Shown here: piece after piece, positions 20,836 to 58,125 of the stretch | Layout: every line of letters starts with the position of its first letter | Position numbering within the stretch: position 1 is the stretch's first letter | Source of the DNA: Eledone cirrhosa | Taxonomy: Eukaryota | Direction: 5' to 3' | NCBI GenBank assembly: GCA_964016885.1 | Contig: OZ024758.1 | Location: 23,374,001 to 23,438,000, forward strand | DNA length: 64,000 nt | Made by a program: the position numbers and the translations under genes | The notes under the pieces: generated by a model | The model's database searches: none | The model's input: only the letters and a program-made list of their open reading frames with translations | Told to the model about the DNA's origin: nothing

Positions 20836-20945
20836 ACTGCTTCTTGGCCTTTTGACTAAATTCAGAGTGAATATTTGTTCTTATCAGCTTAATATCTGAT
20901 ATGTTCCCTATTTGGGACCATCAATATTAAACTGATTTTTAGAAC
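20836..20945 (+). pseudogene. U2 snRNA pseudogene (5' part) in SS18 intron 2
   Basis: ACTGCTTCTTGGCCTTTTGACTAA...TTTGTTCTTATCAGCTTAATATCTGATATG...ATATTAAACTGATTTTTAG aligns to the U2 5' half including the Sm site; the branch-pairing GTAGTA is mutated; a SINE follows at ~20960. Confidence 0.85.
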
Positions 20946-23563
20946 TATACATAGTGAATGGAGACTTGTGGTCTAGTGGTAAGGGTGTTGGACTTATGAT
21001 CATAATGGTGTGGGTTCGATTCTTGGACTGGGTAGTGTGTTTTGTTCTTGAGCAAACCACTTCATTTCACGTTGCTCCAGTATACTCAACTGAAAATGAG
21101 TATCAGCAGTAGCTGAGGGTTTAACCCTGCGATGGACTGGTCCAAGGGAAGTCTTGTACTCTCAGTCCCTTCATGCTACAGAAAACGGAATAAGCACCAA
21201 ACTAATGAGCCTCCGAGTTCTAGACAGACTTTAGACTTTTAGACATATGCGATATCGGTGACATTTGAATTACAGGTACAAACCATCTGACACAATTCTT
21301 CCACGGTTTGTCTTTAGTTTCAATCACAAAACTTGGAACTCCGAGCTCAAAACAGACTTTAAACTTTTAAAACTTTAAAACAGAGTTAGTCTTGCTACTG
21401 GTTGTTTTTGTATTGTAGTGCATCCAGACATCAACTGGATGCACCACAATTAAACAAGCTTATAAGTGAGTTTTCAAATTACACACTGCTGTCTGGAGGC
21501 ACATGGCTTAGTGGTCAGAGCATTGGCCTTGCAATCGAAAGGTTGTGAGTTCAATTCTCAGACCGGGTGATGTGTTGTGTCCTTGAGCAAGATACTTTGC
21601 TCCAGTTTACTCAGCTGTAGAAATGAGATGATAGGGACTGGGGTCCCTATCATTCCACTGCAAAGTGGACGTGTAGGTGCCACGGAAAAAAAGCACCCAG
21701 CGCTCACTGTAAATGAGGTTGGTGTTATGAAGGGCATCCAGCTGTAGAAATCTAGCCAGAATCAGTTCCCATCCCACCCTTGCAAGCAGGGAAATGCGGA
21801 CGTAAAAATGATGATGATGTCTTGAGAAAAAGATACGTTGGACAATGTAGTCAAAGGTAGACTGTCCCAGAATCAAAAGACTGGAAGGCCACGATTTATT
21901 GATGTGTTTTATATTACAATATGGGAACAATAGTATTGTTGTTACAGGTTTTCAATGACCCAATCACTGGTTCACTGTCTTAGTAACAAGCGTGTGACAA
22001 CCAGTTTTTCAGTTTCTCATTATTGTTTATATTCTTTGCTGATATATATATCTCAATGAAAAATATATATACACATACACACACACACATCATCATCATC
22101 GTTTAATACCCATTTTCCACACCAGCATGGATTAGATAGGTTGTCCCATTAGACAATTAGAGGCAAGTTGGGTCAGCTGATCGTGTCTTGCTCATAGAGG
22201 AACATATGCAACAGATTTCTGTACTGGTTCCATCCAGCTGATTCTACTCCCATACACGATATTGGTCAACCAAGTTTATGTTTATAAGATACTTACGGAA
22301 GGTAGAGACAGCCTAGTGAGATCAAACCTTTAGCTATATGTCTAACCCATGCTAGCTTGGAAGATGGAGGTTAAATGATGATGATGATGGTTATGAAACA
22401 AACTTCTTAACCATATAGCCATGCCTGTACCCATCAATTTTAATGTCTTTGATCATAGATTTACTCAATCAGGGCCGACTTGAGGCTAACGAATGACAAC
22501 ACAACACATTTTTTACTCGGCGCACATCATGCTTTCACATCATTTATTCGTCGGTATAAGAATCTCTCCTGCCTTATTTTGTATGAAGACTTTAATGCCG
22601 AGACACTTCACTAGTTACTTTAACTAAATTGGCCATCTACAACTTGAATCTTGCTTTTTGATTTTAAGAAAGAACTTTCATATCCGTATGTGAGTGTGTG
22701 TTAGCATTTGTATATTTCAAATTTCATAACTTCCCACCATTTGGAATACAATTTACATTACAATTATTAAATTCTGGTTTTAGTTTTAGAAATGTAATGT
22801 TGATTTCTACTTGAATATTCATGATTTTATAGTTAGTTACATTGACAAAAATGTTCCTTTCTTATATTATGTCCTTTAGCTAGATATTTACTTGGCTAAA
22901 CTGTAAAGTTGATTTAACAGGTTACCAACCTGGTCAAAACCAGATCTGGTTTTATGAAATAAAGTCACCCATTTTAAAGGTTTCCAATTTAAATTAAAAT
23001 CTTCCAACATAATTTTATATAAGAGCCTTACATTAAGTTACTTATCTTAGTAATGAAATCATTAATAAATTTAGTAAATCCTTCGAAATTCTTCTTTATT
23101 TAATTGCGATAGAGTGCATTTCATTAGAATTGTGGTCATAAAAGGATTAATACACAGATGATTTAAGATGTTTGGTAATATAATTTACATAAATCACATA
23201 TTAATCCTTTAGCATTTAAACCAGCCATATCAAGCCAGAATTCTCTCACTTCTTTCTGTAACTGGCTGCTCCTATTGAAGTTAAGGTATTGTTATCAAAA
23301 TCTCATAGATTCAAGATTATGTGAGGTAAAGCCTTTACCATGGAAATACACTAGTAAATATAGAGTAATGTAAATGGTAAAGAGTTAAATTAAAGAATAA
23401 ACAAAAAAGACATTAATTTTTAGTAGTGAAACTTTTGACATGATTCTAATGACAAATCTATATTGTGGTCAAGCTGTTTGTGTGATTCCTTGATTAACTA
23501 AAACTTGAGTAATATTTGATGTATTCAGATTTTTTATTTTACTGACGTTATGTTATGTTTTAG

Positions 23564-33236: not shown

Positions 33237-34585
33237 GTCAACAGTACAGTCAGCAGCAAGCCTATGCTCAGCAGCAATATAATTCACAGCCACCATATAC
33301 TCAGGGCCAAGGGCAGCAGTCTTATACTCAACAACCAGGCTACAGTCAATCTCCAGGACCTGGTGGAGGTCCAGCACCTGGACCTAACATGTCTCCACAA
33401 TCACAGTACTCAAACTATCCGGGTGGTGGTCAATCTCAAACACGCTATAATCCTTATAACAGACCTCAGCAAGGTCCACCAGGTATGCCGCCTTCTGGAC
33501 CTCTTCCTCCTGGTTCTATGCAAGGCCCCCCTGGTGCTATGCAAGGGCCACCCGGCTCCATGCAAGGGCCGCCCGGCTCCATGCAAGGCCCCCCTGGAGG
33601 CATGCAAGGACCACCTGGTTCCATGCAGGGACCACCTGGTGGTATGCAGGGCCCACCTGGAGCCATGCAAGGACCACCTGGTTCTATGCAGGGCCCACCC
33701 GGTGGTATGCAAGGCCCACCCGGTGGTATGCAAGGCCCACCTGGTGGTATGCAAGGACCACCCGGTGCTATGCAAGGCCCACCTGGTGCTATGCAGGGCC
33801 CACCCGGCTCTATGCAGGGCCCACCTGGTTCTATGCAAGGCCCACCCGGTGCTATGCAAGGACCACCTGGTTCAATGCAAGGACCACCTGGCTCCATGCA
33901 GGGACCACCTGGTTCGATGCAAGGCCCTCCAGGATCCATGCAGGGACCACCTGGCTCTATGCAGGGTCCACCTGGATCTATGCAAGGCCCTCCAGGATCC
34001 ATGCAAGGTCCACCAGGCTCTATGTCTGGTCCACCCGGCCCCATGTCTGGTCCACCCGGCCCCATGTCTGGTCCACCCGGTCCCATGTCTGGCCCATCCG
34101 GTCCCATGTCTGGTCCTCCCGTGTCCATGTCTGGTCCTCCGCCTGGCTCTATGTCCGGTCCTCCGCCAGTTTCCATGTCCGGCCCTCAGGGTCCGATGGG
34201 TCCCAGCGGCGGCGGGGGGCAAATGAACCCCAACAGCAATCAGATGGGCGGACAAAACCAAATGCCAGTGTCGGGAAGTAGCTCGATGCAACAGCCGAAC
34301 AGCATGAGCAACAGTGTTGTGAGTGGGGCGGGTGGTGGTGGCGGCGGAGGCGGGGGTGGAGGTGGCGGCGGCGGTGGAGGCAGCAATAGTAGTAACAGTG
34401 GGGGAGGCGGTGGCGGCGGCGGTGGTGGTGGTGGTGGTGGTGGTGGTAGTAGTGGTAGTAGTGGTGGTGGTGGTGGTGGTGGTGCTGGTGGAAGTAGCAA
34501 CAGTGGGCAGCAGTCGCACATGCCTAATAGCCAGATGTCTGGTCAGGGTCAGTCGGGTTACTCTTACAACCAAAACCAGTATTAA
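33237..34585 (+). CDS. SS18: SS18-like terminal coding exon 7 (QPGY region, heptad repeat, poly-Gly)
   Basis: CTTTTTCTCTTGGCAG acceptor, phase 1; GQQYSQQQAYAQQQY...GQGQSGYSYNQNQY, stop TAA 34583-34585. Spliced CDS is 2214 nt (737 aa). Confidence 0.88.
33506..34200 (+). repeat. Coding 21-bp repeat encoding GPPG[S/G/A/P]M[Q/S] heptads
   Basis: About 30 units in the exon 7 frame; third codon positions vary between units while the peptide is kept. Confidence 0.95.
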
Positions 34586-50253: not shown

Positions 50254-50319
50254 GTGCAAACAAAGGATCCCTTGGCTCCAAGCACACCAATTATAAGCAG
50301 CTGGAAACGGGAGAATGTT
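50254..50319 (+). CDS. Tandem DUF1330-like protein, coding exon 2
   Basis: TTTTATTTCCTGTAG acceptor; VQTKDPLAPSTPIISSWKRENV; donor GTT|GTAAGT; 66 nt, phase 0 to 0. Confidence 0.68.
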
Positions 50320-50464
50320 GTAAGTTGTTACTTTTTCTTTTACTTTTAATTTCATTTTAAAATTTTTTTCTTTTGAGCCAACTTATGCAGCTTCATATGC
50401 AAATGAGATTAATCACCTGATTTACACAGACGAGAAAACTATATATTCTCGGCTGTCTTCTAGT

Positions 50465-50554
50465 CCAGCAGTCGCAAGTGGCGGGAGGGATCGTCCTGAC
50501 GAAGGCCAGTTAAGCCTGAAATGCATAGACGGTTGTCCCCCTTGCTTCTGCTGG
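50465..50554 (+). ncRNA. Minimal type I hammerhead ribozyme motif (Penelope-like)
   Basis: ATCGTC-CTGACGA(50496-50502)-AGGC cagttaa GCCT-GAAA(50518-50521)-TGCA-TA-GACGGT; palindromic stem III ATGCAT; stem I extends via GCAAG/CTTGC and CCAGCAG/CTGCTGG; predicted cut after 50527. Confidence 0.75.
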
Positions 50555-50967
50555 CCATCACCAGTAGGGTTGCTAGGATGCGTCCATAGGTGGTATGCTG
50601 GTGAGAAAGAGAATTTGCTTCGAAATCACTAGACGTATCTGAGGAACTTGCGAATCCAGAGTCAGGTTCTATCTACAAATAGATCGCACCTCGAGCTGTT
50701 TACCGGAGAAACAATTGTGATACGTAATAAATTGTGTTCCGATGCATCACGTTTTCCATTATTATATATATATATATATAATAGGGCGGTGGATTGGCAG
50801 TATCGGTAGAGGGTCGGACGCCATGCTTTCCAGCATAGTTACGTCCCTTTACAATCTGAGTTCAAATCCCGCCAAAGTTGACTTTGTCTTCCATCCTTAC
50901 GGGGTCGATAAAATAAAGTACCAGTAACGCACTGGGTAATTGCTGGCCTTGTGCCTAAAGTAGAAAC

Positions 50968-54939: not shown

Positions 54940-57355
54940 CATACATTACATATATACATTACATTACATATATACATTACATTACATATATACATTACAT
55001 TACATATATACATTACATTACATATATACATTACATTACATATATACATTACATTTTATATATACATTACATTACATATATACATTACATTACATATATA
55101 CATTACATTTTATATATACATTACATTACATATATACATTACATTACATATATACATTACATTTTATATATACATTACATTACATATATACATTACATTA
55201 CATATATACATTACATTTTATATATACATTACATTACATATATACATTACATTACATATATACATTACATTACATATATACATTACATTTCATATATACA
55301 TTACATTTTATATATACATTACATTACATATATACATTACATTACATATATACATTACATTACATATATACATTACATTACATATATACATTACATTTTA
55401 TATATACATTACATTACATATATACATTACATTACCTATATACATTACATTACATATATACATTACATTACATATATACATTACATTTTATATATACATT
55501 ACATTACATATATACATTACATTTTATATATACATTACATTACATATATACATTACATTACATATATACATTACATTTTATATATACATTACATTACATA
55601 TATACATTACATTACATATATACATTACATTACATATATACATTACATTTTATATATACATTACATTACATATATACATTACATTACCTATATACATTAC
55701 ATTACATATATACATTACATTACATATATACATTACATTTTATATATACATTACATTACCTATATACATTACATTTTATATATACATTACATTACATATA
55801 TACATTACATTTTATATATACATTACATTACATATATACATTACATTTTATATATACATTACATTACATATATACATTACATTACATATATACATTACAT
55901 TACATATATACATTACATTTTATATATACATTACATTACATATATACATTACATTTCATATATACATTACATTTTATATATACATTACATTACATATATA
56001 CATTACATTTCATATATACATTACATTTTATATATACATTACATTACATATATACATTACATTACATATATACATTACATTACATATATACATTACATTA
56101 CATATATACATTACATTACATATATACATTACATTACATATATACATTACATTACATATATACATTACATTTTATATATACATTACATTACATATATACA
56201 TTACATTACATATATACATTACATTACATATATACATTACATTTTATATATACATTACATTACATATATACATTACATTACATATATACATTACATTACA
56301 TATATACATTACATTTTATATATACATTACATTACATATATACATTACATTTTATATATACATTACATTACCTATATACATCACATTACATATATACATT
56401 ACATTACATATATACATTACATTACATATATACATTACATTACATATATACATTACATTTTATATATACATTACATTTTATATATATACATTACATTTTA
56501 TATATACATTACATTTTATATATACATTACATTACATGTATACATTACATTTTATATATACATTACATTACATATATACATTACATTTTATATATACATT
56601 ACATTACATATATACATTACATTACATATATACATTACATTACATATATACATTACATTTTATATATACATTACATTTTATATATACATTACATTTCATA
56701 TATACATTACATTACCTATATACATTACATTACATATATACATTACATTTTATATATACATTACATTTTATATATACATTACATTACATATATACATTAC
56801 ATTACATATATACATTACATTTTATATATACATTACATTACATATATACATTACATTACATATATACATTACATTTTATATATACATTACATTACATATA
56901 TACATTACATTACATATATACATTACATTACATATATACATTACATTACATATATACATTACATTACATATATACATTACATTACATATATACATTACAT
57001 TACATATATACATTACATTACATATATACATTACATTTTATATATACATTACATTACATATATACATTACATATATACATTACATTTTATATATACATTA
57101 CATTACATATATACATTACATTACATATATACATTACATTACATATATACATTACATTTTATATATACATTACATTACATATATACATTACATTACATAT
57201 ATACATTACATTTTATATATACATTACATTACATATATACATTACATTACATATATACATTACATTTTATATATACATTACATTACATATATACATTACA
57301 TTACATATATACATTACATTACATATATACATTACATTACATATATACATTATAT
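54940..57355. repeat. 18-bp satellite (ATATATACATTACATTAC), ~130 copies, in gene 2 intron
   Basis: Near-perfect 18-bp period with variants ending TTTT, TTTC or ACCT; explains the spurious 835-aa ORF. Confidence 0.98.
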
Positions 57356-57483
57356 TATATGCATACATTACTTACAAATATAATATTTTCTATAACACTC
57401 ATATGTGCATATATATATATATATAGTTGAAAAAAAATGAAAACGAAATTTCATTTCTCACTCTTAGTATGGCACTTACTTAA

Positions 57484-57538
57484 ATGTAAGTATGTATGTA
57501 TACGTACATACATATATGTATACAGACGTACAGTAGCA

Positions 57539-57588
<50 letters not shown>

Positions 57589-57998
57589 TATATACACATG
57601 CATACAGGTACACATACATATATGCACGCATCAGTTTAGCCTACGTTTATTATAACGCCGGCCGCTTTGTTCGTTTGTTTGTCAACAAAGCGAACAGCCT
57701 GAATTTATGCCATACGGTGTTAAGGCAACCACGTCACCTTTTTGTTCAACACTGACACAGGAACGATGTACTAGTTTCAAGCTTGTTAGCTATCATCAGC
57801 ACCGTTTACCCATCTGCCAGATAGTTGAACGTTCGAAAGTATATACTTTCCTTATGAAAATTAACGGCTGAGCAGCCTAATTTGCATATTGAGTGAGTTA
57901 AATCGGTCAGGCATACCGAAAACGATTAGTTGAAAAAAAAACGTAGGCTAAACTGATGCGTGCATATATGTATGTGTACCTGTATGCATGTGTGTATA

Positions 57999-58070
<72 letters not shown>

Positions 58071-58125
58071 TGCTACTGTACGTCTGTATACATATATGTA
58101 TGTACGTATACATACATACTTACAT
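57484..58125. mobile_element. Fold-back element: ~165-185 bp near-perfect inverted arms around a 290-bp hammerhead-containing spacer
   Basis: 57484-57648 is the reverse complement of 57939-58125 apart from (TA)n length. Confidence 0.9.
57762..57806 (-). ncRNA. Minimal type I hammerhead ribozyme motif (Penelope-like)
   Basis: Minus strand reads AACGGTG-CTGATGA-TAGC taacaa GCTT-GAAA-CTAG-TA-CATCGTT; 7-bp stem I with one G-U; palindromic stem III ACTAGT; GUA triplet; U-U mismatch at the base of stem II. Confidence 0.75.

Follow-up and report, generated by a model that had tools for sequence, protein, structure and literature searches.

What drives the transcription of short hammerhead repeats is the question raised by two elements of the sequence analysed here, a 64,000-nucleotide window (position 1 being its first letter) within a 3.0-Gb animal genome, where an octamer, a TATA-like box and a predicted self-cleaving ribozyme follow one another closely on both the plus and the minus strand. 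For animal retrozymes, abundant expression has been reported across most tissues, an uncommon property among retroelements (PMC7229834, Discussion), and a host-matched snRNA core promoter in every unit would explain such wide expression; the papers on such retrozymes name no promoter for it in their main texts. Based on comparisons among the window elements, their genomic relatives and the host's own snRNA genes, we favour, with a probability of roughly 0.6, a reading in which each unit carries a compact host-type snRNA promoter, made up of octamer, proximal element (PSE) and TATA, that likely starts Pol II ahead of the ribozyme, the read-through RNA being cut into promoter-bearing units.

Two hammerhead units and their surroundings

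Scanned with a descriptor, the window yields two minimal type I hammerheads and no more. In both, stem I has 7 bp and stem III is palindromic, and RNA folding gives stems I and II as expected; an Rfam scan of the window lists neither, returning spurious microRNA matches on (TA)n instead. Two of the window's four ATGCAAAT octamers stand ahead of these hammerheads. The preliminary description had picked out octamer, TATATA and minimal type I hammerhead in both elements, and every word that it quoted is found at its quoted coordinate.

Element 1 (50373-50569, plus strand, 197 nt) is a partial copy of a retrozyme family with a unit of about 322 nt, hereafter F1, and is broken off at the start of another repeat. 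Its octamer ATGCAAAT (50397-50404) continues into a KAG extension as in host U6 genes (50397-50407 together) and is followed by a PSE-like motif beginning TCACC (50413-50424), a weak match alone whose position is conserved across families, by TATATA (50440-50445, 27 nt after the PSE start) and by the hammerhead itself (50489-50534; core CTGACGA at 50496, 7-bp stem I, 4-bp stem II and palindromic stem III). Transcription is predicted to start at 50468-50471 and the ribozyme to cut after 50527. An exon-like stretch with AG/GT borders lies at 50254-50319, 53 nt upstream on the same strand, so that the element 1 ribozyme may sit in a sense-strand intron.

Element 2 (57424-57941, minus strand) is one full unit (505 nt) of a second family, F2, that runs from T-run to T-run and ends in (TA)n. 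Joined to its 5' end is an inverted partial F2 unit (57942-58123, plus strand), which reads as a Penelope-type 5' inversion. Here the octamer ATGCAAAT (57887-57880) with its TAG extension (57877-57887 together) is followed by a PSE-like motif beginning TCAGCC (57860-57871, score 6.2), by TATATA (57840-57845, 26 nt after the PSE start) and by a hammerhead (57762-57806) with core CTGATGA at 57799, 7-bp stem I and palindromic stem III, the predicted transcription start and cut falling at 57816-57813 and after 57769, respectively. An 18-nt minisatellite of about 136 copies (54942-57382) adjoins element 2, and elsewhere the window holds a proline/glycine-rich coding-like repeat (33509-34491) and a truncated U2 copy, probably a pseudogene (20836-20953).

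Matches to F1 cover only 50373-50569 of the interval originally assigned to element 1; the remainder lies in a copy (50570-50755, plus strand) of a distinct repeat family, X, where an inverted 5' piece is followed by a hammerhead-like core at 50639, GAAA at 50708 and AATAAA at 50726. Family X counts 2332 candidates in the genome, and none of the 11 other loci viewed has it directly abutting F1. Its hammerhead-like core has a long stem II (an insertion of about 65 nt), which predicted folds do not reproduce, and a cleavage triplet that is altered in the window copy; in one further copy, at locus L122, CRE-like, CCAAT and TATA-like words stand upstream in place of the octamer. We therefore rejected AATAAA as a component of the cassette, to which it had initially been assigned, since the site at 50726 belongs to family X, the one in the F2 unit (57646-57651, minus strand) is not common to the other families, only one of five unit sequences contains the word, and it also occurs in 26% of the window's 250-nt stretches. 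The accompanying view that the two elements are otherwise dissimilar is accurate for their overall sequence (local score 25, with shuffles reaching up to 28) and overlooks the PSE-like motif that they share.

Tandem, protein-free families with Penelope-type insertion

F1 comprises 4562 genomic candidates, 40 of which were scored, with a tandem unit of 322-339 nt and dimers in four loci, while F2 (719 candidates) forms near-identical 505-nt arrays with orientation flips. Although the window copies of both families are single units, tandems are seen elsewhere in both, and at least two consecutive hammerhead-bearing units are present in F2 arrays and F1 dimers. Each unit carries a type I hammerhead, unit GC contents of 34-45% are as low as expected of retrozymes, and no family-owned ORF is found among the ORFs listed at the loci. 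By sequence, elements 1 and 2 are thus copies of high-copy, protein-free tandem hammerhead repeats, i.e. animal non-LTR retrozymes, a known class; of the two element types initially brought up for comparison, tandem retrozymes describe them better than do the pseudo-LTRs of a Penelope-like element with coding capacity. Two further hammerhead families, F3 and F6, are without the octamer, and the former, organized in 311-nt arrays, dominates the first 100 of 18,013 hammerhead matches. Some 30-45 nt beyond the cut site, F2, F3 and a number of F6 copies carry a CRE-type word resembling GTGACGT. F2 also reaches high contig depth in sequencing runs whose RNA or DNA kind is unstated, which has no bearing on expression.

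As to mobility, 19 of 29 F1 loci hold both orientations, and many F1 copies are circularly permuted units, with variable 5' ends, whereas the 3' ends are concentrated at two positions of the unit and continue into (TA)n; copies include a T-run together with the promoter behind it. This is the insertion pattern described for Penelope-like elements in the accessible text of PMC8557442 and PMC11167929, and both window elements are non-LTR retrozymes with Penelope-type insertion into (TA)n. The genome harbours an abundant, young Penelope-like RT/GIY-YIG family with open 713-aa frames (25,184 candidates, 150 scored), whose label comes from motifs recognized by eye and from Atlas neighbours of the 713-aa ORF that carry HTH_animal, GIY-YIG and RVT_1. 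Searching Pfam and PDB with the ORF sequence gave no match. Between this family and F1 or F2 no sequence link was found beyond chance neighbourhood, with sporadic matches in 25 loci and one family sampled, so that a mobilising partner is something we infer rather than identify. One F1 copy, although next to an RT/GIY-YIG ORF, has a TA site as its insertion point. Within 1.5 kb of its RT segment, the Penelope-like family has no consistent canonical hammerhead core.

An octamer ahead of many hammerhead cores

To follow the octamer beyond the window, we counted octamer-N72-102-core arrangements throughout the genome, excluding the stem III words of both window families, and obtained 2815 matches, in copies rather than independent events, versus three for the reversed pattern and 120 with the octamer in the other orientation. 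The 2815 matches are spread over many families, and many of the 120 are inverted pieces of a single one. The pairing of octamer and hammerhead therefore lies far beyond chance. When 132 unique hammerhead loci are grouped into 26 clusters, many of them singletons that are old, truncated or of another type, eight clusters have an exact octamer in the scored window. Because two large families, F3 and F6, lack it, the octamer is optional, and we rejected it as a universal feature of hammerhead repeats.

Promoter architecture of the host snRNA genes

For comparison with the host's own promoters, we took U6, U1, U2, U5, U4, RNase P and U6atac genes from the genome and kept one promoter per near-identical group. 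Of 16 distinct U1/U2/U4/U5 promoters, 15 carry YCAGY, the PSE word, between -55 and -58, followed 23-29 nt after its start by a TATA-like word, with no adjacent octamer in any of the four classes; the RNase P promoter has the YCAGY word too, but its TATA lies 32 nt on. The exact octamer is found in two dispersed U6 genes, starting from -76 in one and -77 in the other, a one-base variant is found at -78 in 5 of 11 U6 array copies, two further U6 matches have none, and a variant at -77 occurs in one of six U6atac loci. Overall, an octamer-like word with KAG at -76 to -78 and a TATA near -30 characterize three U6 promoter types and U6atac. In the remaining 6 of the 11 array copies, a common repeat substitutes for the octamer/PSE stretch of the promoter.

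Most of the U1, U2, U6 and RNase P promoters seen also share a distal word, TTACCTCCCTTG in form, that lies further upstream, between about -260 and -290, and was not seen in those of U4 and U5. In the host Pol II snRNA genes, moreover, the TATA-like word sits near -30, the PSE is preceded by the word AATTA at a distance of about 33 nt, and the 3' box closes with CAGAC; in F3 and F6, AATTA has no more than a loose counterpart. The PSE is bound by SNAPc with the aid of Oct-1, and polymerase choice is set by TATA, PSE sequence or spacing in a lineage-dependent manner, the combination of PSE and TATA selecting Pol III in vertebrates (PMC9652321, in its accessible text). As a by-product, the comparison defines the host's PSE, its distal element and 3' box and the arrangement of its U6 promoters, which is useful for guide or hairpin RNA expression in the species.

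A PSE-TATA core inside the retrozyme units

Between octamer and TATA, the repeats carry a motif, YCAGY-NNN-TGT, that begins 16 nt after the octamer start and matches the proximal element of host U1, U2, U4 and U5 genes. We built a 12-column PSE matrix from the snRNA genes alone and ran it on 10 octamer-bearing family representatives, eight of them identified via the octamer pattern; being related to one another, the ten represent perhaps four or five lineages. The matrix peaks at octamer+16, with a mean of 3.25 versus -14.1 ± 2.9 at the other 160 offsets (z 5.9); at the same offset, 37 unrelated genomic octamers from the same loci average -15.7, and none of 100,000 resamples reached the observed mean. 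A TATA at octamer+40 to +45 is present in nine of the ten representatives versus 3 of the 37 unrelated octamers. Furthermore, the C at octamer+17 and the A at +18 are invariant (10/10), the T at +24 is present in nine, and these are the columns of the host PSE. The octamer-free families F3 and F6 retain YCAGT, with TATA at +27 and +26. Genome-wide, the PSE-TATA-core pattern is found 46,188 times versus 981 for its reversal, and octamer-PSE-TATA 41,269 times versus one, overlapping ends being counted twice.

Individually, the matches are modest: the representatives score -5.2 to 9.7, below held-out snRNA genes (3.1 to 16.8), F1 is not significant alone (-2.6, p 0.27), and, taken one at a time, 7 of 27 upstream regions fall below p 0.05, with none among the 12 that have no visible cassette. 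A host-type PSE about 55 nt before the inferred start is accordingly a joint property of the representatives, weak for element 1 by itself. With regard to spacing, the 26-27 nt from PSE to TATA match the Pol II snRNA genes (23-29) and not RNase P (32), and the octamer-to-TATA distance, mostly 40-43 nt, departs from the 46-48 nt of U6 and thus from Pol III spacing of the U6 kind. A 3' box sought in five units was matched in none of them (p 0.19-0.93), so the units resemble snRNA genes in their promoters only and not as whole transcription units. We discarded a 3'-box-like word noticed by eye in family F4 as not significant in the unit (p 0.19; one copy scored 14.1). The host distal element, of the type situated about 260 nt upstream, was not seen by eye in the same five units, which have the adjacent octamer instead.

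A model for retrozyme transcription and its alternatives

In the model that we propose, Pol II would be started some 16-28 nt before the ribozyme core by SNAPc, with a POU factor assisting from the adjacent octamer, and the polymerase, in the absence of a 3' box, would read through the following units, which fits with the failure of every unit to match the host 3' box. The minimal ribozymes, probably acting as dimers, would cut the read-through RNA into unit lengths; each cut-to-cut RNA would include the next unit's promoter, so that a promoter of the upstream type would travel inside the RNA. The unit RNAs would then form circles, which a Penelope-like RT/endonuclease would copy into (TA)n. 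The predicted starts fall near the sites, 50470 and 57815, guessed in the preliminary description, whose notion of self-promoting, self-cleaving units is supported by sequence comparison once the octamer is taken as optional and a shared poly(A) signal is dropped. The words of the octamer-plus-TATA promoter that it envisaged are present as well, and they are better read as snRNA-type (PSE, TATA and octamer).

The cassette could instead be an ordinary Pol II promoter in which the likeness to a PSE is incidental. Octamer and TATA box are its most obvious words, the modest PSE scores are negative in 3 of the 10 representatives, and an octamer next to the PSE has no counterpart in the host Pol II snRNA genes. 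Such a promoter would nonetheless have to account for invariant repeat bases that coincide with host PSE columns (+17 and +18 in all ten representatives, +24 in nine) and for the retention of PSE and TATA in F3 and F6 without the octamer, and no poly(A) signal is shared; we regard it as improbable. Somewhat less so, if still unlikely, is that the motifs are kept as RNA structure, namely an octamer hairpin in the circular RNA, or by common descent, with the RNA itself deriving from host-gene read-through. In circular folds of F1, F2 and F2b, the octamer does pair with an inverted arm close by, the z of the local hairpin is -2 or lower for 6 of 17 rows versus none of four U6-type rows, and the exon-like stretch just upstream of element 1 is on the same strand. 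However, the partner arm and its register vary between families and between F2 variants while the octamer stays constant, 11 of the 17 rows have no strong hairpin (z -0.1 for element 1), and the same words recur at matching spacing in U6 and U1/U2 promoters, which are not transcribed.

A U6-type Pol III promoter, with the T-runs of the units as terminators, is the least probable alternative in our estimation. It would agree with the octamer, KAG and TATA of the host U6 layout, with T-runs of 5-10 upstream of the next octamer in F1, F2, F2b and F4, and with the vertebrate rule that TATA selects Pol III (PMC9652321, as above). Nevertheless, Pol III is disfavoured because of the spacing, octamer-to-TATA being about 4 nt shorter than in U6 and PSE-to-TATA (26-27) being that of U1/U2 rather than RNase P (32), and because copies include both a T-run and the promoter behind it, which termination at the T-run would drop from the RNA. 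In addition, F3 has no run above T4.

The favoured reading, of a Pol II snRNA-type promoter within each unit, is directly testable, since its predictions narrow each start to four bases and point to particular bases for mutagenesis. A broader and distinctly tentative extension is that animal retrozymes are in effect snRNA-promoter SINEs, in which ribozyme cutting, together with tandem arrangement or circular permutation, would keep an upstream-type SNAPc promoter within the RNA. In this genome, the SNAPc core would have been combined with interchangeable activator modules, the octamer in one group and CCAAT with a GC-rich word in another; considered alongside newt satellite 2, this would be a general answer, ancient or convergent, to the question of why retrozymes show high expression in all tissues. 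If true, tens of thousands of circular-RNA templates would be under the control of POU factors or other host activators.

Comparison with known systems

The window families resemble the metazoan non-LTR retrozymes of Cervera and de la Peña (2020, PMC7229834) and of Li, Clavereau and Pollet (2026, 10.64898/2026.07.22.740005) in being non-coding tandem units with one type I hammerhead each, a GC content at or below 45%, thousands of copies and co-existing Penelope-like elements proposed as mobilisers; their units measure 311-505 nt versus about 170-400 nt in those reports. No internal promoter appears in the main text of the former, where 'promoter' occurs twice and refers to T7 both times, or in that of the latter preprint, where the word occurs zero times, the supplements of both being places where promoters could be annotated. 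Like Penelope-like pseudo-LTRs (PMC8557442, PMC11167929, in the available text), the families have a minimal type I hammerhead, occur in partial tandems and with inverted 5' copies, target AT-rich or (TA)n sequence and have fixed internal 3' ends; they differ from them in that F1- and F2-type families own no ORF in the loci seen. Hammerhead families without the cassette have PSE scores at background (0/12 under p 0.05). Relative to the host snRNA promoters, the repeats have the same PSE word as the Pol II genes, at the same spacing from TATA, and the octamer-KAG of U6; in contrast, the combination of octamer and PSE-TATA is found in neither gene class, and the repeat promoter lies within the unit, without distal element or 3' box.

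The closest parallel comes from amphibian satellite DNA: Coats, Zhang and Epstein reportedly described in 1994 a newt satellite 2 promoter consisting of an octamer and a PSE. Newt satellite II is cited in the accessible text of PMC2220036 as having an snRNA promoter for Pol II, and it is likewise a hammerhead-bearing tandem repeat whose internal snRNA-type promoter is used by that polymerase. The promoter layout had initially been thought undescribed for such elements; this precedent qualifies that view, which stands for invertebrate retrozymes, for which no description of an snRNA-type promoter was found in the literature outside subscription papers. The newt repeat belongs to another phylum, and its promoter function was shown in the newt, whereas here it is read from the sequence. 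The present families have, in addition, a TATA-like box, as in the host Pol II snRNA genes, and an octamer that abuts the PSE, and their core is common to many families, some of which swap the octamer for other words. While the retrozyme class is already known, an snRNA-type promoter in invertebrate retrozymes would thus be the new element, giving the single newt precedent a counterpart in a distant phylum.
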